Positions 12,940 through 64,000 of a stretch of DNA of 64,000 nucleotides are shown here, piece by piece. How positions within the stretch are numbered: position 1 is the first letter of the stretch; every line of letters begins with the position of its first letter. The translations under genes were made by a program, and so were the position numbers. Location of the stretch: assembly GCF_046105845.1 (NCBI RefSeq), contig NZ_CP151004.1, one strand, 5' to 3'. Source of the stretch: Escherichia coli. Lineage in GTDB: Bacteria; Pseudomonadota; Gammaproteobacteria; Enterobacterales; Enterobacteriaceae. The notes below the pieces were generated by a model that was given only the letters and a program-made list of their open reading frames with translations, was not told where the DNA came from and searched no databases.

Positions 12940-12985
12940 ACTTCGGTACTTCACATTTTTACAAGAAATTTAGCTGGTGAGAAAG

Positions 12986-13061
12986 TGGTGGGTGATGACG
13001 GGATCGAACCGCCGACCCCCTCCTTGTAAGGGAGGTGCTCTCCCAGCTGAGCTAATCACCC
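12986..13061 (-). tRNA. valX: tRNA-Val (anticodon UAC)
   Basis: Second identical tRNA-Val copy, 46-bp spacer. Confidence 0.95.
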
Positions 13062-13105
13062 ACTTCTCAATTTCTTGCTACACGGCGGAGACTACATAAA
13101 GTAGT

Positions 13106-13181
13106 TGGTGGGTGATGACGGGATCGAACCGCCGACCCCCTCCTTGTAAGGGAGGTGCTCTCCCAGCTGAGCTAATCACCC
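13106..13181 (-). tRNA. valU: tRNA-Val (anticodon UAC)
   Basis: Third identical tRNA-Val copy; first gene of the operon. Confidence 0.95.
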
Positions 13182-13439
13182 CCGCTGTGTGGAGTCGCAT
13201 TATAGGGAGAGTTCAAAATGAGTCAACGCATTTTCTAAAGAAATTGTTCGTTCGTCGTAAATTTAAGCAAGATGATCGCAAAACAGACCGTGTTGCGCAA
13301 TTTGTCAACGAAAACAATAATGCGTAAGGTTGCAACCCGAACTACATTGAGGAATCAGGCGGGAGTGATAGAATATCGCCCACTCAATTTTTCCAGGATT
13401 TGCCGGTTGTCGGCATCTTTCTAAACGTAAGGCCATTTC

Positions 13440-14855: not shown

Positions 14856-14871
14856 TTAGCGCATAAAAGAT

Positions 14872-14905
14872 AAACGGCAGGAGAGATACCCCTGCCGTTT
14901 TTTAT
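14872..14905. terminator. Bidirectional rho-independent terminator between gltX and yfeD
   Basis: Hairpin aacggcagg-agagatacc-cctgccgtt followed by T-run. Confidence 0.7.
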
Positions 14906-15298
14906 TTATTCTGATTCATCTATGTCGAGACGAGCAAGGAAATTACGAATTCCTTCGCGTGACAAAAATTGCGCAACTTTTTCCTGCTCACTGTGAGTCA
15001 TGTTGTCTATTGCGCTGATGATTTGCCGATAAGCAGGAGTGCGAATCCCCGGTGCGTATTCGGCAAGGGGTTCTTCGGCTTCCAGAAGCATCGGCGTGTT
15101 ATGGAAGGCTGGCGTGTTCTGAATAAACTCGCAAACTTGCGTATCGACCAGAATAAGTCTGGCACGACCGCCTTTCACGCCAGGAAACTTTTCCGTTTTC
15201 CAGCCTTTTTCTCTGATCCAACGGTTAACAGTTTGTTTAGCCACACCGAGGCATTCAGCCAGTTCTTCGGTGGTCATTTTATTGCGTAATCTTTTCAT
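14906..15298 (-). CDS. yfeD: DUF1323 putative DNA-binding protein (HTH)
   Basis: 130-aa ORF with HTH-like segment TTEELAECLGVAKQTVNRWIREKGW; paralogous to adjacent yfeC. Confidence 0.75.
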   Translation of the reverse strand: MKRLRNKMTTEELAECLGVAKQTVNRWIREKGWKTEKFPGVKGGRARLILVDTQVCEFIQNTPAFHNTPMLLEAEEPLAEYAPGIRTPAYRQIISAIDNMTHSEQEKVAQFLSREGIRNFLARLDIDESE

Positions 15299-15299
15299 A

Positions 15300-15659
15300 T
15301 TATTTGCTATCGCGAATCCCTAAGCGTTGTAATAATCCGATAATCCCTTCCCGCAGAAGCAAGGATGTAAACTGTTTTTGTTCAACTGGCGTCATCTCTT
15401 TCGCCAGTGTCACCAGCAACACTTCAAGCGGCGCATCACCAGACAGGGCAGGCGCTTCTCCCTGACCTTCTGGACGTTCAGCATTGCGAATATATTCACG
15501 AACCTGTTCATTGACGTGAACCAGTCGGGCTTTGCCACCCTGGACGCCAGGTTTTGGTGACGTTGTCCAGCCTTCCTTGCGTACCCATTTATTAATGGTC
15601 TGGCGGCTATAGCCGGTCAGTCTGGCAAGTTCATCTGGCGTCATCCTCTCCTTGAACAT
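15300..15659 (-). CDS. yfeC: DUF1323 putative DNA-binding protein (HTH)
   Basis: 119-aa ORF with HTH-like segment TPDELARLTGYSRQTINKWVRKEGW. Confidence 0.75.
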   Translation of the reverse strand: MFKERMTPDELARLTGYSRQTINKWVRKEGWTTSPKPGVQGGKARLVHVNEQVREYIRNAERPEGQGEAPALSGDAPLEVLLVTLAKEMTPVEQKQFTSLLLREGIIGLLQRLGIRDSK

Positions 15660-15879
15660 AACAATTCCCTGAATGTATGTGGGTCTATTAGTCGTTCATT
15701 TTATAACACCACTTTACAGGAAACCGTGACATGAATAACTACTGAATGCGAGCGGTTTTCCAAAATTGTTCATTTGCCTGATTTTTCAGCGATTGAAACT
15801 ACACGTTGCAATTTGCCGTTGACACATTCGGGCGGAATTCATATGATGCCGCCCGTCAACTCGACAAGCTTTACGTGAC

Positions 15880-15955
<76 letters not shown>

Positions 15956-15994
15956 AATTTTGCACCCAGCAAATTTGGTACGTAAACGCATCGT

Positions 15995-16070
<76 letters not shown>

Positions 16071-49418: not shown

Positions 49419-50582
49419 GTGGAACAGATTAATTCAAATAAAAAACAATCTAACAGAAGAAAATACTTTTCTTTATTGGCGGTAGTTTTATTTATTGCGT
49501 TTTCAGGTGCCTATGCCTATTGGTCAATGGAATTAGAAGACATGATTAGTACAGATGACGCCTATGTCACGGGGAATGCAGATCCAATTTCTGCACAAGT
49601 CTCAGGTAGTGTCACTGTCGTTAATCATAAAGATACGAACTACGTTCGACAAGGTGACATTTTAGTCTCACTGGATAAGACTGATGCCACTATCGCACTC
49701 AATAAAGCTAAAAATAATCTGGCCAATATTGTTCGGCAAACGAATAAACTGTACTTACAGGATAAACAATACAGTGCCGAAGTCGCTTCAGCTCGTATTC
49801 AGTATCAACAATCTTTAGAAGATTATAACCGTCGTGTACCTTTAGCGAAGCAGGGGGTTATTTCAAAAGAAACGCTGGAGCATACCAAAGATACGTTAAT
49901 AAGTAGCAAAGCGGCATTGAATGCTGCTATTCAGGCTTATAAAGCGAATAAAGCTTTAGTAATGAACACACCATTAAACCGTCAGCCACAAGTCGTTGAA
50001 GCGGCGGATGCAACCAAAGAAGCCTGGTTAGCGCTTAAACGTACGGATATTAAGAGTCCGGTTACCGGCTATATTGCCCAGCGAAGTGTTCAGGTCGGCG
50101 AAACAGTGAGTCCCGGACAATCGTTAATGGCTGTCGTACCGGCACGTCAAATGTGGGTTAATGCCAACTTTAAAGAAACACAACTCACGGATGTACGGAT
50201 TGGTCAATCGGTCAATATTATCAGCGATCTTTATGGTGAAAATGTTGTGTTTCATGGTCGGGTGACAGGGATCAATATGGGAACCGGCAATGCGTTCTCC
50301 TTATTACCTGCACAAAATGCGACAGGGAACTGGATCAAAATCGTTCAGCGTGTACCGGTTGAAGTTTCTCTTGATCCAAAAGAACTCATGGAACATCCCT
50401 TACGTATTGGTTTATCGATGACAGCAACTATTGATACGAAGAACGAAGACATTGCCGAGATGCCTGAGCTGGCTTCAACCGTGACGTCCATGCCTGCTTA
50501 TACCAGTAAGGCTTTAGTTATCGATACCAGCCCGATAGAAAAAGAAATTAGCAACATTATTTCGCATAATGGACAACTTTAA
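49419..50582 (+). CDS. emrK: Multidrug efflux membrane fusion protein (EmrA paralog)
   Basis: 387-aa ORF with single N-terminal TM and HlyD-family periplasmic adaptor features. Confidence 0.9.
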   Translation: MEQINSNKKQSNRRKYFSLLAVVLFIAFSGAYAYWSMELEDMISTDDAYVTGNADPISAQVSGSVTVVNHKDTNYVRQGDILVSLDKTDATIALNKAKNNLANIVRQTNKLYLQDKQYSAEVASARIQYQQSLEDYNRRVPLAKQGVISKETLEHTKDTLISSKAALNAAIQAYKANKALVMNTPLNRQPQVVEAADATKEAWLALKRTDIKSPVTGYIAQRSVQVGETVSPGQSLMAVVPARQMWVNANFKETQLTDVRIGQSVNIISDLYGENVVFHGRVTGINMGTGNAFSLLPAQNATGNWIKIVQRVPVEVSLDPKELMEHPLRIGLSMTATIDTKNEDIAEMPELASTVTSMPAYTSKALVIDTSPIEKEISNIISHNGQL

Positions 50583-52120
50583 TGGCAATCACTAAATCAA
50601 CTCCGGCACCATTAACCGGTGGGACGTTATGGTGCGTCACTATTGCATTGTCATTAGCGACGTTTATGCAAATGTTGGATTCCACTATTTCTAACGTCGC
50701 AATACCGACAATATCTGGCTTTCTGGGAGCATCAACAGACGAAGGCACCTGGGTTATCACTTCGTTTGGCGTAGCAAATGCCATTGCGATCCCTGTTACC
50801 GGCAGGCTGGCACAAAGAATAGGCGAATTAAGATTATTTTTACTTTCAGTCACTTTTTTTTCGCTGTCTTCATTAATGTGTAGCCTATCGACCAATCTTG
50901 ATGTGCTGATATTTTTTAGAGTCGTTCAGGGGTTAATGGCGGGGCCGTTAATTCCACTGTCACAGAGTTTATTATTAAGGAATTATCCGCCAGAAAAAAG
51001 AACATTTGCTTTGGCATTATGGTCAATGACCGTAATTATCGCTCCGATATGTGGGCCGATATTGGGCGGCTATATTTGCGATAACTTTAGCTGGGGTTGG
51101 ATATTTTTAATCAATGTCCCTATGGGGATTATCGTTCTGACATTATGCTTAACCTTACTTAAAGGAAGAGAAACTGAGACTTCACCGGTCAAAATGAATC
51201 TACCAGGACTAACCCTGTTAGTGCTCGGTGTTGGTGGCTTGCAGATAATGCTTGATAAAGGGCGCGACCTGGATTGGTTCAACTCGAGTACAATAATAAT
51301 ACTAACAGTAGTGTCAGTTATTTCTCTGATTTCTTTAGTCATTTGGGAGTCGACCTCAGAGAACCCGATTCTTGATCTCAGTTTGTTTAAGTCCCGTAAT
51401 TTCACCATTGGTATTGTGAGTATCACATGCGCGTATTTATTTTACTCTGGAGCGATCGTCCTTATGCCGCAGTTACTCCAGGAAACTTTGGGGTATAATG
51501 CGATATGGGCCGGACTTGCTTATGCGCCCATCGGCATCATGCCACTATTAATTTCACCTTTGATAGGACGTTATGGCAACAAAATAGACATGCGGGTGTT
51601 AGTGACATTTAGTTTTTTGATGTATGCGGTTTGCTATTACTGGCGTTCTGTGACATTTATGCCAACGATTGATTTTACAGGCATTATTTTGCCACAGTTT
51701 TTCCAGGGATTCGCCGTTGCCTGTTTCTTTTTACCCTTAACAACGATTTCGTTTTCAGGGTTGCCAGATAATAAATTTGCCAATGCCTCGAGTATGAGTA
51801 ATTTTTTTCGTACCTTGTCAGGATCAGTTGGTACGTCGTTGACAATGACGCTGTGGGGACGACGCGAATCGTTACACCATAGTCAGTTGACAGCAACCAT
51901 CGATCAATTTAACCCCGTGTTTAATTCATCGTCACAAATTATGGATAAATACTATGGTTCGCTTTCAGGAGTTCTTAATGAGATTAATAATGAAATAACC
52001 CAGCAGTCACTTTCTATTTCTGCAAATGAGATTTTCCGTATGGCGGCTATTGCTTTTATCTTACTTACGGTTTTGGTTTGGTTTGCGAAACCGCCCTTTA
52101 CAGCGAAAGGCGTTGGGTGA
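50582..52120 (+). CDS. emrY: MFS multidrug efflux pump (EmrB paralog, 14-TM type)
   Basis: 512-aa polytopic ORF; start overlaps the emrK stop. Confidence 0.9.
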   Translation: MAITKSTPAPLTGGTLWCVTIALSLATFMQMLDSTISNVAIPTISGFLGASTDEGTWVITSFGVANAIAIPVTGRLAQRIGELRLFLLSVTFFSLSSLMCSLSTNLDVLIFFRVVQGLMAGPLIPLSQSLLLRNYPPEKRTFALALWSMTVIIAPICGPILGGYICDNFSWGWIFLINVPMGIIVLTLCLTLLKGRETETSPVKMNLPGLTLLVLGVGGLQIMLDKGRDLDWFNSSTIIILTVVSVISLISLVIWESTSENPILDLSLFKSRNFTIGIVSITCAYLFYSGAIVLMPQLLQETLGYNAIWAGLAYAPIGIMPLLISPLIGRYGNKIDMRVLVTFSFLMYAVCYYWRSVTFMPTIDFTGIILPQFFQGFAVACFFLPLTTISFSGLPDNKFANASSMSNFFRTLSGSVGTSLTMTLWGRRESLHHSQLTATIDQFNPVFNSSSQIMDKYYGSLSGVLNEINNEITQQSLSISANEIFRMAAIAFILLTVLVWFAKPPFTAKGVG

Positions 52121-52227
52121 TGGTAAAAGCAAGGGGTTATAGCGGGTAAGACCGGGGATCTTAAGTCTGCGCCATCGGCAGCATCGCTCACCCAGGGAAA
52201 GGATGGCGATGCTGCATTGAAAATTAA

Positions 52228-53556
52228 TTAGCGGCCTTTTGCCAGATATTGCTCCATCTCTTCTTCCGGCACCATTCCACCTCCCGTCGCCCACACCAGA
52301 TGAGTGGCATTACGCAGTTGTTCTGCGCTGAAACCGTGCATCTGTTGGTAACTTACTGATGCACACACGCGCTGAGGTCCGGCCATACCCGCCAGTGCCG
52401 AAGGTTCAAGACGAATACCTTCTTCCTGCGCCAGCCAGCCAAGCATGTCATACATGGATTGATCGCTAAGGGTATAGAAGCCATCCAGTAGACGCTCCAT
52501 TGCCCGCCCGACAAAGCCTGATGCGCGACCAACTGCAAGGCCATCCGCTGCGGTAAGGTTGTCGATACCAATATCCTGAACAGAAATCTGATCGTGTAAT
52601 CCTGTATGGACGCCTAACAGCATACAAGGGGAGTGCGTTGGTTCGGCAAAAAAGCAGTGAACATGATCGCCAAATGCCAGTTTAAGCCCGAATGCGACGC
52701 CACCAGGACCACCGCCAACACCACACGGCAGATAGACAAACAGAGGGTTATCAGCATCGACAATACGACCTTGCTCGGCAAATTGCGCTTTAAGACGCTG
52801 GCCTGCGACGGAATACCCAAGGAACAACGTGCGGGAATTTTCGTCATCAATAAAGAAACAGTTCGGGTCAGACTGCGCTGCTTTACGTCCTTCCTCGACG
52901 GCAACACCATAATCTTGCTCATATTCCACGACCGTAACGCCATGGCTGCGCAGTTTCGCTTTTTTCCATGCCCGGGCATCAGCAGACATATGCACTGTCA
53001 CCTTAAAGCCAATGCGGGCGCTCATTATGCCGATTGATAACCCCAGATTTCCGGTTGAGCCCACAGCAATGCTGTATTGACTAAAGAACTGTTTAAACTC
53101 CGGAGACAGTAGTTTGCTGTAGTCATCTTCAGGCGTCAGCAACCCCGCTTCCAGAGCCAGTTTTTCTGCGTGTGCCAGGACTTCATAAATCCCGCCGCGT
53201 GCTTTTATGGAGCCGGAAATGGGCAAATGGCTATCTTTTTTCAGTAACAGTTGTCCGCTGATCGGTTGTTGATATTCCTTTTCCAGCCGTTTTTGCATAG
53301 CCGGAATGGCAACCAGTTCTGATTCAATAATCCCCCCAGTGGCAGCAGTTTCAGGAAATGCTTTTGCCAGATAGGGTGCAAAACGAGATAAGCGCGCATG
53401 GGCGTCCTGAACATCCTGTTCGGTCAGGCCAACATAAGGTAAACCTTCAGCCAATGAGGTCGTGCCAGGATTAAACCAGGTGGTTTCTTTAAGAGCAACC
53501 AGATCCTTTACCAACGGATACTGGGCGATGAGCGAGTTCATTTTAGCGTTTTCCAT
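52228..53556 (-). CDS. dsdA: D-serine dehydratase (D-serine ammonia-lyase, PLP-dependent)
   Basis: 442-aa [34 protein letters not shown]... with PLP-lysine region (SGSIKARGG). Confidence 0.95.
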
Positions 53557-53573
53557 AGTACGTCTCTTTGCGC

Positions 53574-53792
53574 TTAGATGATAAATGACAGCAGGAATGT
53601 GCCCGCCAGAGCGACGACTGAAGCGATAAATGTCGCTGTCGTATAGTATTTAAATGTTTCATTGAGCGTAGCGCCGCAATATTGCTTCACCAGCCAGAAA
53701 AGCGAGTCTGTAACGATCGTGCAGCCAATCGCACCTGAACCGATAGCAATCGCAATAATTTCCGGGCTGATGTCGGGATACAGCGGCAGCAC
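53574..53792 (-). pseudogene. dsdX: 3'-terminal remnant of the D-serine permease gene dsdX (GntP family); 5' portion and dsdC replaced by the csc island
   Basis: 72-aa ORF of purely membrane-like sequence 18 bp upstream of dsdA, where intact dsdX sits in K-12; far too short for a GntP permease. Confidence 0.7.
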
Positions 53793-54034
53793 AATGATCC
53801 ATATTTATATTTTCTTCTCCAGGTTGGCGATGCCAGTTGGCATGTTTTACCTACTTGCCTATATGGTTACTCGTTGGCGAGAACAGAGGCGGAATTGGGC
53901 ACAATTGTCCGGGAATTATTGTTATTTTTTATTGTATTGCCGTGTCGGGTGATAGGGCGTTGAGAATATCGTTGGATCTCGCCAGTGACGTCTGTTTCTG
54001 CTACAGTGCCCGTTTTACGGCAAACGGCTTGGGT

Positions 54035-55030
54035 ATGGCTTCATTAAAGGATGTCGCACGCCTGGCGGGAGTGTCGATGATGACAGTCTCCCGGGTGATG
54101 CATAATGCAGAATCTGTGCGTCCTGCAACGCGTGACCGCGTATTGCAGGCAATCCAGACCCTGAATTATGTTCCTGATCTTTCCGCCCGTAAGATGCGCG
54201 CTCAAGGACGTAAGCCGTCGACTCTCGCCGTGCTGGCGCAGGACACTGCTACCACTCCTTTCTCTGTTGATATTCTGCTTGCCATTGAGCAAACCGCCAG
54301 CGAGTTCGGCTGGAATAGTTTTTTAATCAATATTTTTTCTGAAGATGACGCTGCCCGCGCGGCACGTCAGCTGCTTGCCCACCGTCCGGATGGCATTATC
54401 TATACTACAATGGGGCTGCGACATATCACGCTGCCTGAGTCTCTGTATGGTGAAAATATTGTATTGGCGAACTGTGTGGCGGATGACCCAGCGTTACCCA
54501 GTTATATCCCTGATGATTACACTGCACAATATGAATCAACACAGCATTTGCTCGCGGCGGGCTATCGTCAACCGTTATGCTTCTGGCTACCGGAAAGTGC
54601 GTTGGCAACAGGGTATCGTCGGCAGGGATTTGAGCAGGCCTGGCGTGATGCTGGACGAGATCTGGCTGAGGTGAAACAATTTCACATGGCAACAGGTGAT
54701 GATCACTACACCGATCTCGCAAGTTTACTCAATGACCACTTCAAATCTGGCAAACCAGATTTTGATGTTCTGATATGTGGTAACGATCGCGCAGCCTTTG
54801 TCGCTTATCAGGTTCTCCTGGCGAAGGGGGTACGTATCCCGCAGGATGTCGCCGTAATGGGCTTTGATAATCTGGTTGGCGTCGGGCATCTGTTTTTACC
54901 GCCGCTGACCACAATTCAGCTTCCACATGACATTATCGGGCGGGAAGCTGCATTGCATATTATTGAAGGTCGTGAAGGGGGAAGAGTGACGCGGATCCCT
55001 TGCCCGCTGTTGATCCGTTGTTCCACCTGA
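54035..55030 (+). CDS. cscR: LacI-family sucrose operon repressor (start taken at MASLKDVARLAGVS)
   Basis: N-terminal LacI-type HTH (LKDVARLAGVSMMTVSRVMHN) plus periplasmic-binding-like sugar domain; convergent with cscA. Confidence 0.85.
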   Translation: MASLKDVARLAGVSMMTVSRVMHNAESVRPATRDRVLQAIQTLNYVPDLSARKMRAQGRKPSTLAVLAQDTATTPFSVDILLAIEQTASEFGWNSFLINIFSEDDAARAARQLLAHRPDGIIYTTMGLRHITLPESLYGENIVLANCVADDPALPSYIPDDYTAQYESTQHLLAAGYRQPLCFWLPESALATGYRRQGFEQAWRDAGRDLAEVKQFHMATGDDHYTDLASLLNDHFKSGKPDFDVLICGNDRAAFVAYQVLLAKGVRIPQDVAVMGFDNLVGVGHLFLPPLTTIQLPHDIIGREAALHIIEGREGGRVTRIPCPLLIRCST

Positions 55031-55037
55031 TATTATG

Positions 55038-56471
55038 TTAACCCAGTTGCCAGAGTGCTCCATGTTGCAGCACAGCCACTCCGTGGGAGGCATAGAGCGA
55101 CAGTTCCCGTTCTTCTGGCTGCGGATAGATTCGGCTACTCATCACCGTTTCCCCGTCGTTAATAAATACTTCCACGGATGATGTATCGATAAATATCCTT
55201 AGGGCGAGCGTGTCACCCTGCGGGAGGGGAATACTACGGTAGCCGTCTAAATTCTCGTGTGGGTAATATCGCCACAAAACAAGTCGCTCAGATTGGTTAT
55301 CAATATACAGCCGCATTCCAGTGCCGAGCTGTAATCCGTAATGTTCGGCATCACTGTTCTTCAGCGCCCACTGCAACTGAATCTCAACTGCTTGCGCGTT
55401 TTCCTGCAAAACATATTTATTGCTGATTGTGCGGGGAGAGATAGATTGATGCTGCTGGCGTAACGACTCAGCTTCGTGTACCGGGCGTTGTAGGAGTTTG
55501 CCATTGCTCTCTGATAGCTCGCGCGCCAGCGTCATGCAGCCTGCCCAGCCTTCACGTTTTGAGGGCATTGGCGATTCCCACATATCCATCCAGCCGATAA
55601 CAATACGCCGACCATCCTTCGCTACAAAGCTTTGTGGTGCATAAAAGTCATGCCCGTTATCAAGTTCAGTAAAATGCCCGGATTGTGCAAAAAGTCGTCC
55701 AGGCGACCAAATTCCGGGTATTACGCCACTTTGAAAGCGATTTCGATAACTGTATCCCTCGGCATTCATTCCCTGCGGGGAAAACATCAGATAATGCTGA
55801 TCGCCAAGGCTGAAAAAGTCCGGACATTCCCACATATAGCTTTCACCCGCATCAGCGTGGGCCAGTACGCGATCGAAAGTCCATTCACGCAATGAACTGC
55901 CGCGATAAAGCAGGATCTGCCCCGTGTTGCCTGGGTCTTTCGCCCCGACTACCATCCACCATGTGTCGGCTTCACGCCACACTTTAGGATCGCGGAAGTG
56001 CATGATGCCTTCTGGTGGAGTGAGGATCACACCCTGTTTCTCGAAATGAATACCATCCCGACTGGTAGCCAGACATTGTACTTCGCGAATTGCATCGTCA
56101 TTACCTGCACCATCGAGCCAGACGTGTCCGGTGTAGATAAGTGAGAGGACACCATTGTCATCGACAGCACTACCTGAAAAACACCCGTCTTTGTCATTCT
56201 CGTCTCCTGGCGCTAGCGCAATAGGCTCATGCTGCCAGTGGATCATATCGTCGCTGGTGGCATGTCCCCAGTGCATTGGCCCCCAGTGTTCGCTCATCGG
56301 GTGATGTTGATAAAACGCGTGATAACGATCGTTAAACCAGATCAGGCCGTTTGGATCGTTCATCCACCCGGCAGGAGGCGCGAGGTGAAAATGGGGATAG
56401 AAAGTGTTACCTCGGCGCTCGTGAAGTTTTGCTAGTGCGTTTTGCGCCGCATGTAATCGAGATTGCGTCAT
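55038..56471 (-). CDS. cscA: Sucrose-6-phosphate hydrolase / invertase (glycoside hydrolase family 32)
   Basis: GH32 motifs WMNDPNGL, FRDP and WECPD in the translation. Confidence 0.9.
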   Translation of the reverse strand: MTQSRLHAAQNALAKLHERRGNTFYPHFHLAPPAGWMNDPNGLIWFNDRYHAFYQHHPMSEHWGPMHWGHATSDDMIHWQHEPIALAPGDENDKDGCFSGSAVDDNGVLSLIYTGHVWLDGAGNDDAIREVQCLATSRDGIHFEKQGVILTPPEGIMHFRDPKVWREADTWWMVVGAKDPGNTGQILLYRGSSLREWTFDRVLAHADAGESYMWECPDFFSLGDQHYLMFSPQGMNAEGYSYRNRFQSGVIPGIWSPGRLFAQSGHFTELDNGHDFYAPQSFVAKDGRRIVIGWMDMWESPMPSKREGWAGCMTLARELSESNGKLLQRPVHEAESLRQQHQSISPRTISNKYVLQENAQAVEIQLQWALKNSDAEHYGLQLGTGMRLYIDNQSERLVLWRYYPHENLDGYRSIPLPQGDTLALRIFIDTSSVEVFINDGETVMSSRIYPQPEERELSLYASHGVAVLQHGALWQLG

Positions 56472-56504
56472 TTTTATCATCCTGGTTAAGCAAACTTGGT
56501 GAAT

Positions 56505-56517
56505 TGTTAACGTTAAC
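56505..56517. promoter_or_regulatory. Candidate CscR operator O1 (palindrome TGTTAACGTTAAC) upstream of cscA
   Basis: Self-complementary GTTAACGTTAAC core with central CG, typical of LacI-family operators. Confidence 0.5.
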
Positions 56518-56568
56518 CTTTATAAAAATAAAGTCCCTTGCTTTCATAAATGCGATGAATATCACAAA

Positions 56569-56581
56569 TGTTAACGTTAAC
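56569..56581. promoter_or_regulatory. Candidate CscR operator O2 (second exact copy of TGTTAACGTTAAC) upstream of cscK
   Basis: Identical 13-mer 64 bp from O1 within the divergent cscA/cscK control region. Confidence 0.5.
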
Positions 56582-56686
56582 TATGACGTTTTGTGATCGA
56601 ATATGCATGTTTTAGTAAATCCATGACGATTTTGCGAAAAAGAGGTTTATCACTATGCGTAAGTCAGATGAATTTAAGGGAAAAAA

Positions 56687-57610
56687 ATGTCAGCCAAAGT
56701 ATGGGTTTTAGGGGATGCGGTCGTAGATCTCTTGCCAGAATCAGACGGGCGGCTACTGCCTTGTCCTGGCGGTGCGCCAGCTAACGTTGCGGTGGGAATC
56801 GCCAGATTAGGCGGAATAAGTGGGTTTATAGGTCGGGTGGGGGATGATCCTTTTGGTGCGTTAATGCAAAGAACGCTGCTAACTGAGGGTGTCGATATCA
56901 CGTATCTGAAGCAAGATGAATGGCACCGGACATCCACGGTGCTTGTCGATCTGAACGATCAAGGAGAACGTTCATTTACGTTTATGGTCCGCCCCAGTGC
57001 CGATCTTTTTTTAGAGACGACAGACTTGCCCTGCTGGCGACATGGCGAATGGTTACATCTCTGTTCAATTGCGTTGTCTGCCGAGCCTTCGCGTACCAGC
57101 GCATTTACAGCGATGACGGCGATCCGGCATGCCGGAGGTTTTGTCAGCTTCGATCCCAATATTCGTGAAGATCTATGGCAAGACGAGCATTTGCTCCGCT
57201 TGTGTTTGCGGCAGGCGCTACAACTGGCGGATGTCGTCAAGCTCTCGGAAGAAGAATGGCGACTTATCAGTGGAAAAACACAGAACGATCGGGATATATG
57301 CGCCCTGGCAAAAGAGTATGAGATCGCCATGCTGTTGGTGACTAAAGGTGCAGAAGGGGTGGTGGTCTGTTATCGAGGACAAGTTCACCATTTTGCTGGA
57401 ATGTCTGTGAATTGTGTCGATAGCACGGGGGCGGGAGATGCGTTCGTTGCCGGGTTACTCACAGGTCTGTCCTCTACGGGATTATCTACAGATGAAAGAG
57501 AAATGCGACAAATTATCGATCTCGCTCAACGTTGCGGAGCGCTTGCAGTAACAGCGAAAGGGGCAATGACAGCGCTGCCATGTCGACAAGAACTGGAAAG
57601 TGAGAAGTAA
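56687..57610 (+). CDS. cscK: Fructokinase (PfkB/ribokinase family)
   Basis: 307-aa ORF with PfkB signatures (GGAPANVAVGIARLGG and DSTGAGDAFVAGLL). Confidence 0.9.
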   Translation: MSAKVWVLGDAVVDLLPESDGRLLPCPGGAPANVAVGIARLGGISGFIGRVGDDPFGALMQRTLLTEGVDITYLKQDEWHRTSTVLVDLNDQGERSFTFMVRPSADLFLETTDLPCWRHGEWLHLCSIALSAEPSRTSAFTAMTAIRHAGGFVSFDPNIREDLWQDEHLLRLCLRQALQLADVVKLSEEEWRLISGKTQNDRDICALAKEYEIAMLLVTKGAEGVVVCYRGQVHHFAGMSVNCVDSTGAGDAFVAGLLTGLSSTGLSTDEREMRQIIDLAQRCGALAVTAKGAMTALPCRQELESEK

Positions 57611-57671
57611 ACGGCGAGGCCGCTCTTATCTCTAAATAGGACATGAATTTTTTAACGACAGGCAGGTAATT

Positions 57672-58919
57672 ATGGCACTGAATATTCCATTCAGAAATGC
57701 GTACTATCGTTTTGCATCCAGTTACTCATTTCTCTTTTTTATTTCCTGGTCGCTGTGGTGGTCGTTATACGCTATTTGGCTGAAAGGACATCTAGGATTA
57801 ACAGGGACTGAATTAGGTACACTTTATTCGGTCAACCAGTTTACCAGCATTCTATTTATGATGTTCTACGGCATCGTTCAGGATAAACTCGGTCTGAAGA
57901 AACCGCTCATCTGGTGTATGAGTTTCATTCTGGTCTTGACCGGACCGTTTATGATTTACGTTTATGAACCGTTACTGCAAAGCAATTTTTCTGTAGGTCT
58001 AATTCTGGGGGCGCTCTTTTTTGGCCTGGGGTATCTGGCGGGATGCGGTTTGCTTGACAGCTTCACTGAAAAAATGGCGCGAAATTTTCATTTCGAATAT
58101 GGAACAGCGCGCGCCTGGGGATCTTTTGGCTATGCTATTGGCGCGTTCTTTGCCGGTATATTTTTTAGTATCAGTCCCCATATCAACTTCTGGTTGGTCT
58201 CGCTATTTGGCGCTGTATTTATGATGATCAACATGCGTTTTAAAGATAAGGATCACCAGTGCATAGCGGCGGATGCGGGAGGGGTAAAAAAAGAGGATTT
58301 TATCGCAGTTTTCAAGGATCGAAACTTCTGGGTTTTTGTCATATTTATTGTGGGGACGTGGTCTTTCTATAACATTTTTGATCAACAACTCTTTCCTGTC
58401 TTTTATGCAGGTTTATTCGAATCACACGATGTAGGAACGCGCCTGTATGGTTATCTCAACTCATTCCAGGTGGTACTCGAAGCGCTGTGCATGGCGATTA
58501 TTCCTTTCTTTGTGAATCGGGTAGGGCCAAAAAATGCATTACTTATCGGTGTTGTGATTATGGCGTTGCGTATCCTTTCCTGCGCGCTGTTCGTTAACCC
58601 CTGGATTATTTCATTAGTGAAGCTGTTACATGCCATTGAGGTTCCACTTTGTGTCATATCCGTCTTCAAATACAGCGTGGCAAACTTTGATAAGCGCCTG
58701 TCGTCGACGATCTTTCTGATTGGTTTTCAAATTGCCAGTTCGCTTGGGATTGTGCTGCTTTCAACGCCGACTGGGATACTCTTTGACCACGCAGGCTACC
58801 AGACAGTTTTCTTCGCAATTTCGGGTATTGTCTGCCTGATGTTGCTATTTGGCATTTTCTTCTTGAGTAAAAAACGCGAGCAAATAGTTATGGAAACGCC
58901 TGTACCTTCAGCAATATAG
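57672..58919 (+). CDS. cscB: Sucrose:H+ symporter (LacY-like oligosaccharide:H+ symporter, MFS)
   Basis: 415-aa 12-TM MFS ORF downstream of cscK. Confidence 0.85.
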   Translation: MALNIPFRNAYYRFASSYSFLFFISWSLWWSLYAIWLKGHLGLTGTELGTLYSVNQFTSILFMMFYGIVQDKLGLKKPLIWCMSFILVLTGPFMIYVYEPLLQSNFSVGLILGALFFGLGYLAGCGLLDSFTEKMARNFHFEYGTARAWGSFGYAIGAFFAGIFFSISPHINFWLVSLFGAVFMMINMRFKDKDHQCIAADAGGVKKEDFIAVFKDRNFWVFVIFIVGTWSFYNIFDQQLFPVFYAGLFESHDVGTRLYGYLNSFQVVLEALCMAIIPFFVNRVGPKNALLIGVVIMALRILSCALFVNPWIISLVKLLHAIEVPLCVISVFKYSVANFDKRLSSTIFLIGFQIASSLGIVLLSTPTGILFDHAGYQTVFFAISGIVCLMLLFGIFFLSKKREQIVMETPVPSAI

Positions 58920-59360
58920 ACGTAAACTTTTTCCGGTTGTTGTCGATATCTCCATATCCCTCAACCGGAAAATAGTAATACAAAAATGCTTAGCCCAACT
59001 AATAATCACCTAATCCAAACGCCTCATTCATGTTCTGGTACAGTCGCTCAAATGTACTCCGGATACGCGGTTCGCTGATTTCCAGGACATTGTCGTCATT
59101 CAGCGACCTGTCCCGAGTATCACGGGCCTGCGAATTCATCAAGGAATGCATTGCAGAGTGAAGTATCGAGTCACGCCATATTTCGCTATCAGGATTCTGT
59201 ATGATGGTTACATCGCCCGGCCCAGGGCTGTTTAGTCATCAGCGCTTTCTGACAGTGCTGAGATTTCAACCTGTTGCAGTAAAAATGAGTAGATATAGGG
59301 CAAGTGTGCTGCCAAACCCATCTTTTACGGGGTGAAGGTAGATATTGTTAGAAGGGTATC

Positions 59361-59375
59361 TGGTGTCCCCTGCAG
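59361..59375 (-). other. Prophage attachment-site core (attR): 15-nt copy of the 3' end of tRNA-Arg argW
   Basis: Minus strand reads CTGCAGGGGACACCA, identical to the 3' terminus of argW as I recall it; directly flanks torI as at the K-12 KplE1 attR. Confidence 0.6.
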
Positions 59376-59448
59376 ACATCTACTTGACGCGGCAGGGGAT
59401 TGATTGGAATGGTGTTTTTTGGATGTGAGAAATATTTTACCCGCTATT

Positions 59449-59649
59449 TTACCCATTGGCGCGGCTTAAGAGCTTATTTTTGAATTCACAATGGTCACGA
59501 TATAACCATCTTGCTCGCCCGTGGATAACTTTAGCTTTTGGCAGGTCGCCGGACTTAATCCGGTCATAGATGAAGGTTTTACCGAAGCCAGTATCGGCCA
59601 TGATGAATTTCAAATCAACCAGTGAATCAGGTTGTAGTTCGTGTTGCAT
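59449..59649 (-). CDS. torI: Excisionase / recombination directionality factor TorI (start taken at MQHELQPDSL)
   Basis: 66-aa translation MQHELQPDSLVDLKFIMADTGFGKTFIYDRIKSGDLPKAKVIHGRARWLYRDHCEFKNKLLSRANG recognised as TorI; winged-helix Xis-like. Confidence 0.8.
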   Translation of the reverse strand: MQHELQPDSLVDLKFIMADTGFGKTFIYDRIKSGDLPKAKVIHGRARWLYRDHCEFKNKLLSRANG

Positions 59650-59668
59650 GAGTGCTATCTCCAAATAG

Positions 59669-59684
59669 GGAATCGAACCTGCAA
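59669..59684 (-). other. 16-nt sequence identical to the argW T-arm segment immediately preceding the att core, separated from the core by torI
   Basis: Minus strand TTGCAGGTTCGATTCC; with the 59361-59375 core it reconstitutes the last 30 nt of argW. Confidence 0.45.
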
Positions 59685-59706
59685 ATCAGGCAATAAAAAA
59701 CCGCCA

Positions 59707-59874
59707 TCAGGCGGCTTGATGTTCTTTCAGTTCTTCAATTCGAATATTGGTTACGTCTGCATGTGCTATCTGCGCCCATATCATCCAGTGGTCATAGCAG
59801 TCGTTGATGTTCTCTGCTTCGATAACTCTGTTGAATGGTTCTCCATTCCATTCACCTGTGACTCGGAAGTGCAT
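59707..59874 (-). CDS. Small prophage ORF (55 aa), hypothetical
   Basis: ATG-initiated ORF MHFRVTGEWNGEPFNRVIEAENINDCYDHWMIWAQIAHADVTNIRIEELKEHQAA followed on the minus strand by a GC hairpin and T-run. Confidence 0.35.
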   Translation of the reverse strand: MHFRVTGEWNGEPFNRVIEAENINDCYDHWMIWAQIAHADVTNIRIEELKEHQAA

Positions 59875-59962
59875 TTATCATCTCCATAAAACAAAACCCT
59901 CCGTAGCGAGTTCAGATAAAAGAAATCCCCGCGAATGCGAGGATTGTTATGTAATATTTGGT

Positions 59963-60244
59963 TTAATCATCTATATGTTTTGTACAGAGAGGGCAAGTAT
60001 CGTTTCCACCGTACTCGTGATAATAATTTTGCACGGTAGCAGTCATTTCTCGCACATTGCAGAATGGGGATTTGTCTTCATTAGACTTATAAACCTTCAT
60101 GGAATATTTGTATGCCGACTCTATATCTATACCTTCATCTACATAAACACCTTCGTGATGTCTGCATGGAGACAAGACACCGGATCTGCACAACATTGAT
60201 AACGCCCAATCTTTTTGCTCAGACTCTAACTCATTGATACTCAT
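59963..60244 (-). CDS. Cys/His-rich hypothetical prophage protein (93 aa)
   Basis: ORF containing CRSGVLSPCRHH and CPLCTKH motifs; ea-region position. Confidence 0.45.
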   Translation of the reverse strand: MSINELESEQKDWALSMLCRSGVLSPCRHHEGVYVDEGIDIESAYKYSMKVYKSNEDKSPFCNVREMTATVQNYYHEYGGNDTCPLCTKHIDD

Positions 60245-60446
60245 TTATAAACTCCTTGCAATGTATGTCGTTTCAGCTAAACGGTATCAGCAATGTTTAT
60301 GTAAAGAAACAGTAAGATAATACTCAACCCGATGTTTGAGTACGGTCATCATCTGACACTACAGACTCTGGCATCGCTGTGAAGACGACGCGAAATTCAG
60401 CATTTTCACAAGCGTTATTTTTTACAAACCCGTATTCCTGCTCATA

Positions 60447-61070
60447 TCACTCTCCTTTGATGCGAATACCAGCAGTGCGCTCGGCTTCACTTTGTTCCCA
60501 AAACCACTTGTGAAGCTCCATAAGCTTTTCGTCAATCGGTGCATATTTGCGATTAAAGTAGGCCTGAGCATCTTTCTCAGATTCGTCCGGCAATTCGCCT
60601 GGGCCAAACAGTGTGTTATAAATCCATGCCAGTCCGCTTTTAGCGTCGCCAGTTGCCTGCCATTCGATAATCGCAGCCTGCATGACCAGAATGTTTTTCC
60701 CGATTAACAGGTCCAGTTCTTTGAACCGGTTGCGGATGTATGCATTCTCGCTTTGTAATTTTGCGTTGCGCTTCTCTGCGGCTTCCAGCTCAACACGCAG
60801 TTTCCCTACCGCTAGCGCAATTTCCTCGTTCTCCTGGTCGCGGCGTTTGATGTATTGCTGGTTTCTTTCCCGTTCATCCAGTAGTGCCAGCACGGTTTCT
60901 GGTCCGGCCAGAAATTTGAAGGCGTTGAGCGCATCAATATCCACACCGTAATCTTTAAGTTCCTGTTCACTTAACAAATCATCATCAGCTGGCAACATTA
61001 ACAGGCGTTCCATTGCTGGAATTGCACGTTCCGCCACCTCACGCAGTGCCTGGTAATTAATTTCGCTCAC
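60447..61070 (-). CDS. Lambdoid prophage ea-region protein, possibly Ea22-like (coiled-coil)
   Basis: 207-aa [27 protein letters not shown]... with central heptad-rich segment; start overlaps the upstream ORF stop (ATGA). Confidence 0.5.
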   Translation of the reverse strand: MSEINYQALREVAERAIPAMERLLMLPADDDLLSEQELKDYGVDIDALNAFKFLAGPETVLALLDERERNQQYIKRRDQENEEIALAVGKLRVELEAAEKRNAKLQSENAYIRNRFKELDLLIGKNILVMQAAIIEWQATGDAKSGLAWIYNTLFGPGELPDESEKDAQAYFNRKYAPIDEKLMELHKWFWEQSEAERTAGIRIKGE

Positions 61071-61516
61071 TGGTTGCCTCCTTTGCGAAGCTGGGCAGCA
61101 AAGTCACGGATAGTGTCATCAAGGTCTGGGCACAACAGATGGTCAGCAAACATCTCTACCCCCTGCGCCCGTACTTCAGCCAGGAAAGCATCGGTGGTTG
61201 GGGTTTCAGTAACATCATCTTCCCATTCGCCAAACTCCTCACGACAAAAGTCATTAAATTCCTTCTCAGATTGCTTAAGCGAGGTATTTTCTGCAGCCAT
61301 CTTCGCGCATTTAGCCTCAAGGTTATCAATCGTGATTCCAGCAGAACGACACTCCCGCAACGCCGTTTCCAGTTTTGATTCAAGCTCACCGAACTTACGC
61401 ACCAGATATTCAGCGTTTGTTTCGTTAACCTTTAAATCTCGTGGAAAGCATTTACCTTTCAGAAAACCATCCATCTCAATTAGTGACATTAGTTTCATTT
61501 CTTCCCACTCCGCCAC
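61067..61516 (-). CDS. Lambdoid prophage ea-region protein (coiled-coil, acidic), hypothetical
   Basis: 149-aa ORF translationally coupled to the downstream 207-aa ORF. Confidence 0.45.
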
Positions 61517-61655
61517 ATAGCATTCAGATATTTGTTGTCATTAACAGAACCGAAACTATTTCTCTTAAGTAATTCCTCTCTCGATGGCATTGGCTTTACG
61601 CGTTGGCGAATAATCATTTCTGCCGGAAGAATGCCGGGATTGTATGCAAGTCCTC

Positions 61656-61946
61656 TCATGATTTACTCTCCACGAACTGGTCAACAGCCATGCTAAGTGA
61701 CACACCTAAAGTCTCGATATGTTGCTGAATATCCTGTAGCGTCTGCGCCTGAGATAACAGGATTTCACGGTTGCATAACTCTTTAGCCAGATGCTCAAAC
61801 TTGCTGTAATAACCGATACGACTTAGTGTTTCTTTGCCTGCATTCTCGCCTTCTTTGATAATTCCTCTTTCGCTAAGAATCAGATCGTGTTTGGTTCCGG
61901 TAATAACGTATTTTCCGAGGTCGATGTTTAGCTTCATTGTTTTCAT
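61656..61946 (-). CDS. Hypothetical prophage protein (96 aa; start moved to [13 protein letters not shown], which has a GAGGA RBS)
   Basis: The track ORF N-terminus overlaps the upstream gene and looks out-of-frame; internal ATG has a strong RBS. Confidence 0.4.
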
Positions 61947-61956
61947 TGTTAATTCC

Positions 61957-62253
61957 TCAGTCATTACTGATAGCGCCATAGCGTGAGCGGTAATTACGCA
62001 GGCGCGGGTCGATATATTCAGGGAAGTGGGTATATGTGGCTTTGCGGAATGGTCGGATTGATGTCTGGTAAATTCGCTCGCGTTCTTCTTTCTCTGCAAG
62101 CCATATACAATGGCGAAATTCCTTTTCCTCTTTCGTTTCCTGCGGTAGCGACATTATCCGGTCGTAGTTTTTCCTGAATTTATCCAGCACCTCCGATACG
62201 GAATTGCCGGAACAGCGGCGCGGGTCATCCGCACCATACAGAGGCGCTGGCAT
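61957..62253 (-). CDS. Hypothetical prophage protein (98 aa) just downstream of the Erf/SSB-like pair; Abc-like anti-RecBCD role is speculative
   Basis: Charged 98-aa ORF MPAPLYGADDPRRCSGNSVSEVLDKFRKNYDRIM...; occupies the position where P22-type operons carry abc genes. Confidence 0.35.
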   Translation of the reverse strand: MPAPLYGADDPRRCSGNSVSEVLDKFRKNYDRIMSLPQETKEEKEFRHCIWLAEKEERERIYQTSIRPFRKATYTHFPEYIDPRLRNYRSRYGAISND

Positions 62254-62276
62254 AATGGAATCCTTATGTTGCTAAT

Positions 62277-62660
62277 TTAGAAGGGAATTGAATCGTCGTA
62301 TTCAGGATGATTTTGATGATTGCTACTTTGTTGCTGTTGGCTGTTTCCTGAAGTTGCAAATCCAATCTTTGCATTCAGTAATTCAAGAGTGATTGATTGA
62401 CCATTTTGCCCCTGATAAACATCAACCCTGATGTTTTCTCCGGTAATTTCTACAATGCCACCTTCAACAAGAACACTACGGTAGTAATCCGCTTGCGCTC
62501 CCGGCTTGGCAAATACAACGGCGCTGTAGTTTGTCCATTCTTTCTTTTTTGTCTGGCGATCGTAATACTGAACGCCAGCACGGATGTTGAATCCGATATT
62601 TTCCCCGGCCTGAAACTCTCTTGCGGGCTTGTTTAGTCTTACAGTAATCGAATGTGCCAT
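62277..62660 (-). CDS. SSB-like single-strand DNA-binding protein with SSB-type acidic C-terminal tip (start taken at MAHSITVRLNK)
   Basis: 127-aa ORF ending ...QQQQSSNHQNHPEYDDSIPF (compare SSB C-terminus DDDIPF); ATG overlaps the erf stop (TAATG). Confidence 0.55.
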   Translation of the reverse strand: MAHSITVRLNKPAREFQAGENIGFNIRAGVQYYDRQTKKKEWTNYSAVVFAKPGAQADYYRSVLVEGGIVEITGENIRVDVYQGQNGQSITLELLNAKIGFATSGNSQQQQSSNHQNHPEYDDSIPF

Positions 62661-63265
62661 TAAGCAGCCGCTCCTTCTAATTCGTCTCGTCTGATGTTGT
62701 AAACGTCCTGCGCTTTGTGCTGCTCCGGTGTGCCTTCGAGCATCTTCCACGCTTTGGCGAACGCCTGTTTAAGCTCTTCTACGGTGTTTTTCTGCAATGC
62801 TGCGTCAGTGAATGCTTTTAGAACCTGTTCAGATGTAGGTGATGGTTTTGATTGCTTTGCTGCTGCGTTCTGCTGATGTTTATGCTCGTCGGTATCTGCA
62901 TCTTTCGCATCATCAATGCCGAACAAACCATTGAGGCAATACTTGCGTGCATAAGAGCTTGTAGCTCCAGTAACTTGTGCAGAATCCATTCCTTTCTTGC
63001 TTTCTTCCTCTCGTGCAAGGGCGGTTGCTGTATGACTGTTTTCGCCATCAGTAATAGTTGCTGTTGCTTTCACGTAATACCGATCACCAATCAACACAAC
63101 TTCATCGCTGATTGATAAAAACAGGCCATTCAGTAACGGCTTAACGCCTTCAAGAATGTCTTCGCAGCTTCTGTATTTATATTTACCGAATGAGTTGTAC
63201 TGATTCTTTGGCGCGTTCAGATTCTCCTGAATGGCTGCCAGTCTTGCGTAAAATTCTTTGCTCAT
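62660..63265 (-). CDS. erf: Erf-family single-strand annealing recombinase (start taken at MSKEFYARLAAIQ)
   Basis: Translation MSKEFYARLAAIQENLNAPKNQYNSFGKYKYRSCEDILEGVKPLL... recognised as phage P22 Erf-like. Confidence 0.8.
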   Translation of the reverse strand: MSKEFYARLAAIQENLNAPKNQYNSFGKYKYRSCEDILEGVKPLLNGLFLSISDEVVLIGDRYYVKATATITDGENSHTATALAREEESKKGMDSAQVTGATSSYARKYCLNGLFGIDDAKDADTDEHKHQQNAAAKQSKPSPTSEQVLKAFTDAALQKNTVEELKQAFAKAWKMLEGTPEQHKAQDVYNIRRDELEGAAA

Positions 63266-63275
63266 ATGTTTGTTC

Positions 63276-63446
63276 TCAGAATGGACACGGCCCAAGGAAA
63301 TAACGCTGATTTAATACTTCGACTCGGGACAAATTAAGGCATACCCGCATTCCTTCGCGGTCACCATTATGGCGATACCAGAGAGCTTTCTGCGTGTACA
63401 TGCGTCTCTGTAACTTGCTCTCCTTCACTGTGGTTGCAAGTGACAT
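63276..63446 (-). CDS. Small prophage ORF (56 aa) immediately upstream of erf (Arf-position), hypothetical
   Basis: ATG with AGGAG RBS 6 nt upstream; MSLATTVKESKLQRRMYTQKALWYRHNGDREGMRVCLNLSRVEVLNQRYFLGPCPF; stop 10 nt before the erf start. Confidence 0.4.
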   Translation of the reverse strand: MSLATTVKESKLQRRMYTQKALWYRHNGDREGMRVCLNLSRVEVLNQRYFLGPCPF

Positions 63447-63525
63447 GAATATCTCCTTCGTTACCGATTAAATCTTTCATCTGACGAATGAATTCTTCGT
63501 CTGACCAGTTATCTGTAAAACTCAT
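63367..63525 (-). CDS. Small prophage ORF (52 aa, acidic; kil-position), overlaps the 56-aa ORF in another frame
   Basis: MSFTDNWSDEEFIRQMKDLIGNEGDIHVTCNHSEGEQVTETHVHAESSLVSP; weak RBS spacing; at most one of the two overlapping frames is likely expressed. Confidence 0.25.
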   Translation of the reverse strand: MSFTDNWSDEEFIRQMKDLIGNEGDIHVTCNHSEGEQVTETHVHAESSLVSP

Positions 63526-63658
63526 TTCCTGCGATACCACGGAAGGTTGATAGCTGATTTCATCGCTTTATTTGCTTCAAGCCACATTTTGGAATCACCA
63601 ATAAATCTGGCTATTACTGCTTTGTTTTGTGCCGCACGAAGCATCTGGTGATTAATGG

Positions 63659-63793
63659 CTATTTCATTTCGCATAACGCCTCCAGTTGTTTCTTTGCTGC
63701 TCTGATTAATTGTTTAACTCGGCGTGATAATTCAGATTCGTGCGGGTAGAAAGCGGACATGACGCCGCTACCCGCGAGCTGAAAGTGCATCAT
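63659..63793 (-). CDS. Small cIII-like protein (43 aa; candidate FtsH-inhibitor type)
   Basis: ATG ATG with AAGGAG RBS; MMHFQLAGSGVMSAFYPHESELSRRVKQLIRAAKKQLEALCEMK, with an amphipathic helix resembling the lambda CIII core. Confidence 0.4.
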   Translation of the reverse strand: MMHFQLAGSGVMSAFYPHESELSRRVKQLIRAAKKQLEALCEMK

Positions 63794-63857
63794 GGGTAAC
63801 TCCTTATATTTGATTGCATAACGAAAACGCCTCAAGTGAAGCGTTATTGGTATGCAT

Positions 63858-63883
63858 ATAAAAAAGCCCTCACACTGGAGGGC
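63858..63883 (-). terminator. Rho-independent terminator in the prophage leftward operon (tL1-like position upstream of the cIII-like gene)
   Basis: Hairpin gccctc-acactg-gagggc followed on the minus strand by a T-run. Confidence 0.5.
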
Positions 63884-64000
63884 AAAGAAGATTTCCAATA
63901 ATCAGAACAAGTCGTCTCCTGTTTAGTTACGAGCGACATTGCTCCGTGTATTCACTCGTTGTAATGAATACACAGTGCAGTGTTTATTCTGTTGTTTATG

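Follow-up and report, generated by a model that had tools for sequence, protein, structure and literature searches.

Replacement of part of the D-serine locus of Escherichia coli by the csc sucrose genes has been described since 1979 (Alaeddinoglu & Charles 1979, Jahreis 2002 and Moritz & Welch 2006, as these are cited in PMC4366372). Connolly et al. 2015 described how csc takes the place of dsdC and part of dsdX at the argW recombination hotspot, and reported dsdA in 1561 of 1591 strains, with csc replacing dsdCX (PMC4366372). The csc replacement has also been described for E. coli W (PMC3032704) and in Stephens 2024, and in a 2026 paper the two locus configurations are typed by triplex PCR (PMC13054288). 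The choice between csc and dsdCXA is a recognised niche determinant in E. coli: D-serine is found in abundance in urine and brain, is toxic if DsdA cannot be induced, and represses EHEC's type III secretion system (PMC4366372, PMC7486766, PMC13012123). Whether a dsdA gene stranded by the replacement can be expressed bears on the adaptation of intestinal strains to extra-intestinal sites, a theme already developed in those three papers.

The csc allele in this genome

At the variable argW-dsdCXA island the window, by which we mean the whole 64-kb stretch of E. coli DNA analysed here, has the csc allele, which is common in E. coli; the junction, the gene order and the intact csc genes all agree with that allele. 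Aligned with the K-12 locus, the window is collinear from evgS through dsdA to position 53791, with 97.9% identity across the 6.1 kb up to this junction, and collinear again from 59361. Between these points 2368 bp of K-12, which hold dsdC, the divergent control region between it and dsdX, and dsdX codons 1-373, are swapped for 5569 bp (53792-59360) that contain cscR, cscA, cscK and cscB, all of which are free of internal stops. The left anchor of the locus is the conserved core gene emrY (50582-52120, plus strand), which is convergent with dsdA. At the right junction (59360/59361) homology to K-12 resumes upstream of torI, with K-12 locus positions 8511-8849 matching window positions 59361-59699 by blastn.

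The left junction, at 53791/53792, reads ATGGATCATTG followed by TGCTGCCGCTG on the minus strand, and the BLAST alignments stop there. On the csc side lies an intergenic region 5' of cscR (53793-54034), in which our scans gave no convincing promoter directed at dsdA on the minus strand and which has 12-bp indels between strains. It is followed by cscR (54035-55030, plus strand), an intact open reading frame for the LacI-family sucrose repressor, divergent from dsdA and convergent with cscA; it matches LacI-family models with scores below their cutoffs and is annotated as cscR in H8 and H9. The other three proteins score above the cutoffs of their family HMMs: the invertase (sucrose hydrolase) CscA, encoded at 55038-56480 on the minus strand and thus on the same strand as dsdA (TIGR01322, 478 bits), the fructokinase CscK, at 56687-57610 on the plus strand (NF006957, 506 bits), and the sucrose:H+ symporter CscB, at 57672-58919 on the plus strand (TIGR00882, 594.6 bits). 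The cscK product is 3 amino acids longer than that of the O157 allele, with a 1-nt deletion at the usual stop codon; cscK of strain W46 is also 924 nt long.

On the other side of the left junction lies a 219-bp remnant of dsdX (53574-53792, minus strand), consisting of the C-terminal 72 codons and the stop. By tblastn it is 98.6% identical to DsdX residues 374-446, and it matches profile positions 374-445 of the 445 in NF007395 with 146 bits, where the cutoff is 618. RefSeq calls the equivalent stump a pseudogene with 'missing N-terminus', the O157:H7 stump is annotated likewise, and truncation of this kind is found in the dsdX stump only and not in dsdA. Measured against a functional dsdCXA operon, the csc genes occupy the position of the adjacent divergent dsdC, and the full-length dsdX (445 aa) and the DsdC-dependent promoter are absent. 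The placement of dsdA directly downstream of dsdX is retained, with a 17-nt spacer (53557-53573, minus strand) that carries the dsdA ribosome-binding region AAGAGA, is identical to that of K-12 and is invariant in our alignment.

We searched the 64-kb window by tblastn for components of the operon at other positions. No DsdC was found with the K-12 protein as query, the sole match being a 28%-identical LysR-family paralogue at 11412-11918, and no second DsdX was found; a relocated dsdC or a second dsdCXA copy within the window was rejected on these results. The sequence-only reading of this DNA had described dsdA as full length, DsdC and the dsdX promoter region as gone, and the dsdX remnant as the nearest upstream sequence on the same strand, abutting the csc island, and the searches and alignments bear out this description.

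The dsdA gene itself occupies 52228-53556 on the minus strand as an intact 1329-nt open reading frame of 442 amino acids with no internal stop. Its product matches the D-serine ammonia-lyase equivalog TIGR02035 with 809.5 bits (cutoff 368.25), covering profile positions 1-431 of 431, as well as NF002823 (777.6 bits, cutoff 246) and PF00291 (160 bits). An end-to-end alignment with the E. coli enzyme of PDB entry 3SS7 shows 436 of 442 residues identical, the substitutions being L142P, D143E, Q261E, T367S, T417A and N435E. K118 in SGSIKARGG and the GGGPGG loop are unchanged in this alignment; we take the former to be the PLP-binding lysine and the latter the glycine-rich phosphate loop of E. coli DsdA. 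By these matches the window dsdA encodes a full-length, PLP-dependent D-serine ammonia-lyase of fold type II. Near-identity to the characterised enzyme, together with a reactivated EHEC allele that is only two residues away, suggests that the protein would convert D-serine to pyruvate and NH3.

The swap of csc for dsdCX with a stranded dsdA is already known as a polymorphism of E. coli, and the window is another example of it. A 301-bp probe spanning the junction was covered to at least 80% in 2683 of 5426 complete RefSeq E. coli genomes (49%), and in the genomes outside this set the probe matches on the dsdX side only. No complete E. coli genome exceeds 98.7% identity to the window. The small increment offered here is the same junction, together with an intact and selectively constrained dsdA, in a lineage at least 1.3% diverged from all complete RefSeq E. 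coli.

Constraint and allele sharing in dsdA

The sequence-only reading had raised the prospect that dsdA is a silent relic on its way to decay. In its neutral form this explanation holds that the gene is drifting toward a pseudogene and is intact only because little time has passed since dsdCX was lost. There are observations in its favour: EHEC and E. coli W lack D-serine use (PMC7486766, PMC3032704), dsdX and dsdA of W are labelled 'pseudogenes' in one paper, and in the same paper a deletion of 1403 bp that took out cscR, dsdX' and a portion of dsdA arose harmlessly during laboratory evolution on sucrose (PMC6599523).

We compared dsdA among csc-type and dsdCXA-type genomes picked at even steps down the similarity ranking, which after exclusions left 16 csc-type sequences (the window included) and 11 dsdCXA-type sequences. 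The csc-type gene was annotated intact in 18 of 18 sampled genomes (counting the genomes L010 and L030), with no frameshift or stop in any sampled csc-type copy. The only frameshifted dsdA came from a dsdCXA-type assembly in which dsdX is frameshifted too, and which may reflect assembly quality. An IS element in strain AQ15 (L030) was considered as a disruption of dsdA and rejected, as it sits between emrY and dsdA, beside the gene. The window copy likewise has no frameshift, premature stop or truncation, and genomes without at least 80% coverage of the 2.2-kb region number at most 34 of 5402.

Substitution patterns point the same way. Compared with two csc-type genomes, dsdA of the window has dN/dS values of 0.040 and 0.043, similar to those of the neighbouring emrK and emrY (0.02-0.04). 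Mean piN/piS in the initial sample (11 + 8 sequences) is 0.077 within the csc type versus 0.034 within the dsdCXA type. Variants private to csc-type dsdA comprise 21 synonymous and 13 non-synonymous changes, far below the 76% non-synonymous fraction expected under neutrality (binomial p = 3e-6), and the changes private to the window are 4 synonymous ones plus the conservative T367S. There is a trend that would favour decay, in that 13 of 34 csc-private variants are non-synonymous versus 1 of 10 (9 synonymous, 1 non-synonymous) in the dsdCXA type; however, it is not significant (Fisher p = 0.13, or p = 0.21 with variants on a single haplotype), and excess decay in csc-type genomes was rejected. 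Purifying selection on dsdA is evident in the csc-type sample as judged from these sequences, and the non-significant trend hints at relaxed constraint that would be mild at most.

The distribution of the junction also speaks against a recently abandoned gene. The junction is identical in six aligned csc-type sequences (the window and five others), which are phylogenetically diverse and include a B2-like allele as well as this divergent lineage, and this identity indicates that the replacement is either old or widely spread. Moreover, the published reactivation of the EHEC copy shows a working enzyme (PMC7486766). We therefore find a neutral relic quite improbable, and the suggestion that dsdA is on its way to decay is not sustained by the intact copies, the piN/piS value or the private variants.

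Low dN/dS has to be read alongside the history of exchange at this locus, which the literature terms a recombination hotspot (PMC4366372; PMC13054288; Stephens 2024). Three csc-type and three dsdCXA-type genomes carry the K-12 dsdA haplotype (0 differences over 1329 nt), 5 nt separate the csc-type allele L012 from the dsdCXA-type allele of Nissle, and each of the protein alleles WP_000426427 and WP_000426426 is found in both types of locus. Alleles common to both types imply that the island state has moved by recombination, and because of this sharing a low dN/dS need not mean selection in the csc background. The identity profile of the window against strain 1190 is also mosaic, with cscR at 99.9% and the 301-bp junction stretch at 99.7%, but emrY at 97.9%, dsdA at 98.8%, and the flanking core genes at 97.9-98.9%.

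From these data recombination by itself could help to keep dsdA intact: csc and dsdCXA alleles would be swapped back and forth, and copies of dsdA would be stranded only briefly before being re-tested in a functional operon. As the explanation for maintenance this is a serious possibility that we put somewhat short of even, because it leaves the phenotype of an EHEC dsdA knockout unexplained (PMC13012123), and because lineages like O157:H7 are almost uniformly csc-type yet keep dsdA intact. It is compatible with the explanation that we prefer below, the two not being exclusive.

Transcription of the stranded gene

The dsdX and dsdA genes are co-transcribed in K-12-type loci. In the window cscA lies on the same strand as dsdA, and we examined the interval between the two for promoters and terminators. 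The sequence-only reading had asked for promoter prediction across the junction, holding that a strong dedicated promoter would make dsdA a normally functioning gene rather than an orphan; when the prediction was run, no such promoter was found. A sigma-70 consensus scan of both strands from 52000 to 55200 gave no site, where shuffles give 4.0. When the minus strand between the cscA stop codon and dsdA was scanned with a PWM, the best score was 9.63, below the mean shuffle maximum of 10.24 (200 shuffles), although such scans are low in power, genuine csc promoter regions scoring only 8-10 in the same PWM. The best site, TTGACG-17-AATGCT, lies 987 nt upstream of the dsdA ATG and inside the antisense cscR. 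A strong dedicated dsdA promoter was rejected on the basis of both scans, as nothing on the minus strand between cscA and dsdA exceeds the shuffle maxima.

The junction itself deserves separate mention, as an A/T-rich stretch, ATATAAATAT, is found right there on the minus strand and could be taken as a sign that dsdA gained a strong DsdC-independent promoter of its own and functions normally. Close to the junction the PWM scores reach 5.97 at best, which falls far short of the shuffle maxima, and the junction sequence is the same as that of O157:H7, whose dsdA was measured to be near-silent (PMC7486766); we consider a junction promoter of this kind barely credible.

An intrinsic terminator insulating dsdA from cscA was also sought and rejected. 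The sole terminator-like hairpin on the minus strand between the two genes is weak and sits within the dsdX 3' end, in a stretch common to K-12. The cscA-dsdA spacer is 1481 nt long, has stops in all frames, and reaches C/G ratios of up to about 2.5.

The sequence-only reading treated the expression of dsdA as an open question, but for EHEC, whose locus has the same junction, it had already been measured. O'Boyle et al. 2020 found that EHEC TUV93-0 does not grow on D-serine and is inhibited by it, and that the wild-type dsdA is near-silent or non-functional as judged from RNA-seq, gfp fusions and assays of growth and of D-serine consumption, the enzyme itself being competent (PMC7486766). Spontaneous D-serine-tolerant mutants carried either a 1120-bp deletion from the cscA 3' end to the cscR 5' end or a 5637-bp deletion upstream of dsdA; these deletions, which bring the cscA or the z3622 promoter near dsdA, activate the gene and confer tolerance, and the deletion mutants consumed D-serine. 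In the 1120-bp deletion mutant the dsdA transcript rose 33-fold together with the csc genes. In gfp fusions the wild-type context gave 63-134 RFU versus 2001 RFU for the deleted cscAp context, and the deleted z3622p context gave 257 RFU. A weak internal promoter, dsdAp, was reported about 115 bp upstream of the dsdA ATG, within the dsdX stump stretch. Thus the EHEC gene is near-silent but functional, and is reactivated by upstream deletions (PMC7486766).

Taking these data with the structure of the locus, we think it highly probable that the csc allele holds an intact dsdA stranded by the loss of its DsdC-activated dsdX promoter, with basal transcription only, and kept by purifying selection. 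An ancestral event put the cscRAKB sucrose regulon in place of dsdC, the control region between dsdC and dsdX, and dsdX up to codon 373; dsdA retained its ribosome-binding site and, upstream of it, 219 bp from the 3' end of dsdX. That dsdA is stranded and poorly expressed is supported, and for this strain the conclusion is carried over by analogy from EHEC: basal transcription is published there and would be expected here, with the weak internal dsdAp in the dsdX stump and residual read-through as possible sources. With the promoter activated by DsdC and D-serine lost, the enzyme is not inducible, so that EHEC does not grow on D-serine and is inhibited by it; the strain studied here would probably behave in the same way.

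Transcription from the same-strand cscA promoter would reach dsdA only inefficiently. Read-through would have to extend for 1.48 kb over RNA that is untranslated, richer in C than in G and antisense to cscR, and would run into convergent transcription of cscR; Rho-dependent termination, transcriptional interference or both may weaken it on the way. An attenuating interval of this kind would explain why dsdA is activated when the interval is deleted.

The same interval bears on a further explanation, in which dsdA has been rewired to sucrose, with read-through from cscA once sucrose lifts CscR repression providing a sucrose-conditional D-serine detoxification. The two genes share a strand with no predicted intrinsic terminator between them, and in EHEC loss of cscR raises cscA and dsdA jointly: an isogenic cscR deletion reproduces D-serine tolerance and cscR in trans reverses it, CscR showing no direct repression of the dsd genes (PMC7486766). 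Nevertheless, the low signal quoted above for the wild-type context was obtained with the fragment running from cscAp to dsdA, and O'Boyle et al. credit activation mainly to the altered chromosomal context (PMC7486766). Both the antisense stretch, which is untranslated, and the convergent cscR point to attenuation, sucrose use and D-serine use are reported to be mutually exclusive (PMC13054288; Stephens 2024), and in the collection of papers searched none but O'Boyle 2020 turned up that combines dsdA, cscA and RNA-seq. We judge this rewiring improbable.

Returning to a stranded gene with basal transcription, the maintenance of dsdA likely has non-exclusive causes, namely a low-level role independent of DsdC and the frequent recombinational exchange of csc and dsdCXA alleles. 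A 2026 PNAS paper reports that the EHEC dsdA allele is intact and tested a hypothesis of low constitutive expression; disruption of dsdA did not relieve the repression of type III secretion, but raised basal recA promoter activity, a reporter of basal SOS (PMC13012123). A knockout phenotype in EHEC implies that, even without DsdC, dsdA is weakly expressed or DsdA has some function. One example of such housekeeping would be the removal of D-serine that is endogenous or present in traces, by which basal SOS induction would be kept down. That the stranded gene is actively maintained through DsdC-independent low-level housekeeping, or is coupled to sucrose via cscA read-through, is an idea we put forward tentatively and regard as rather unlikely; if true, the csc swap would be a regulatory rewiring and not a loss of function. 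Basal function, sucrose-coupled read-through and recombinational turnover are thus the candidate reasons why half of the species keeps dsdA intact.

Comparison with known systems

The closest described locus is that of O157:H7 (EDL933/TUV93-0), where a truncated dsd locus beside cscRAKB was described by Jahreis et al. 2002 and Moritz & Welch 2006, as cited in PMC4366372. It has the same gene order as the window (emrY, dsdA, dsdX', cscR, cscA, cscK, cscB), the same 219-bp dsdX stump and the same junction sequence. The two DsdA proteins differ at two residues (L142P and T367S), and the genes diverge by about 1.3% in nucleotides, mostly synonymous. Otherwise the window differs in a cscK that ends 3 codons later, in small substitutions upstream of cscR, and in its prophage content to the right of cscB.

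In E. coli W (ATCC 9637) and EC3132, a chromosomal csc regulon is inserted at the corresponding place, with the argW region on one side and dsdX on the other, and D-serine use is lost (PMC3032704). The comparison with W draws on publications; some authors call its dsdX and dsdA pseudogenes (PMC6599523), whereas the window dsdA is intact.

The intact dsdCXA loci of K-12 and UPEC CFT073 represent the alternative state. Collinearity of K-12 with the window takes in dsdA, its ribosome-binding site and the final 72 dsdX codons, and the two DsdA proteins differ at 6 of 442 residues. The window lacks three parts of the K-12 and CFT073 loci, namely the dsdC gene, the promoter region between the divergent dsdC and dsdX, and codons 1-373 of dsdX, and since dsdC and the dsdX promoter are absent, D-serine-inducible expression of dsdA is impossible in the window locus.

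Among cryptic E. coli catabolic genes that rearrangements reactivate by creating a promoter, the bgl operon is the usual example. Its silencing is mentioned in the account of E. coli W (PMC3032704). By analogy with the O157:H7 copy two residues away, for which this was shown, the window dsdA would behave like a cryptic gene that can be reactivated by promoter-capturing deletions. Like the bgl-type genes, it has an intact coding sequence, is probably silent for lack of promoter activity and would be switched on by rearrangements upstream; it differs from them in that its silence would come from the physical loss of its activator and promoter through replacement of an island.

Divergence and mosaic identity of the window

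Among 5426 complete RefSeq E. coli genomes, the best identity to the window over 18-23 kb (compared across window 16500-60000) was no higher than 98.6-98.7%, and that of dsdA (52228-53556, minus strand) no higher than 98.9%, with synonymous changes predominating among the differences. Judged by these identities, the lineage of the window lies outside that genome set, as would, for example, a rare E. coli lineage or a genome catalogued under a different name, such as Shigella. Identity to strain 1190, a comparison genome that likewise carries the csc island in place of dsdC and most of dsdX, is mosaic: cscR (54035-55030) is 99.9% identical and the junction stretch, where the dsdX remnant abuts the island (53791/53792), 99.7% identical (together window 53650-55030), against 98.8% for dsdA, 97.9% for emrY (50582-52120), the core gene convergent with dsdA, and 99.0% for cscA/cscB (55038-56480 and 57672-58919). 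This profile suggests a recombination tract spanning cscR and the junction.

Small differences within the csc island

Upstream of cscR, 12-13 bp indels distinguish strains at window 53961-53972 and 53829-53841. ACGATATTCTCA is missing from one locus fetched from another E. coli genome (L008), and a second (L012) is without a 13-bp stretch close to the junction; both indels fall within the cscR promoter/leader region. At the 3' end of cscK (56687-57610), one nucleotide present in O157:H7 and strain 1190 is deleted near position 57599, so that the usual TAG stop is lost and CscK is 3 residues longer (ending ELESEK). The gene is 924 nt in strain W46 as well, as it is in the window.

Right flank and tRNA cluster

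The interval on the right side of the csc island (59361-64000) begins with a return of homology to K-12, upstream of torI. Beyond this homologous stretch come numerous short ORFs on the minus strand, which partially match prophage early-region genes of strain 1190, at 94-97% identity in patches. The interval represents the prophage content that varies among genomes in the argW region. The tRNA cluster at 12784-16070, with minus-strand genes for Lys-Val-Val-Val and plus-strand genes for Ala-Ala, is ordinary core-genome content.

dsdA context in other E. coli genomes

The sole frameshifted dsdA in the sample is that of strain AVS0153, which has the dsdCXA-type locus and whose dsdX is frameshifted as well; the dsdA frameshift may be an assembly error and not biology. 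In the csc-type strain AQ15, an IS4-like ISVsa5 (IS10-type) element has inserted into the stretch separating emrY from the dsdA 3' end (positions 282-1490 of that locus) and leaves dsdA undisrupted. In strain A30, dsdA has been stranded by a separate, independent route (positions 1725-3742 of its locus): dsdX is cut at a different point, leaving 1191 bp, and is followed by phage-like genes, not csc, while dsdA is intact and encodes the K-12 protein allele.
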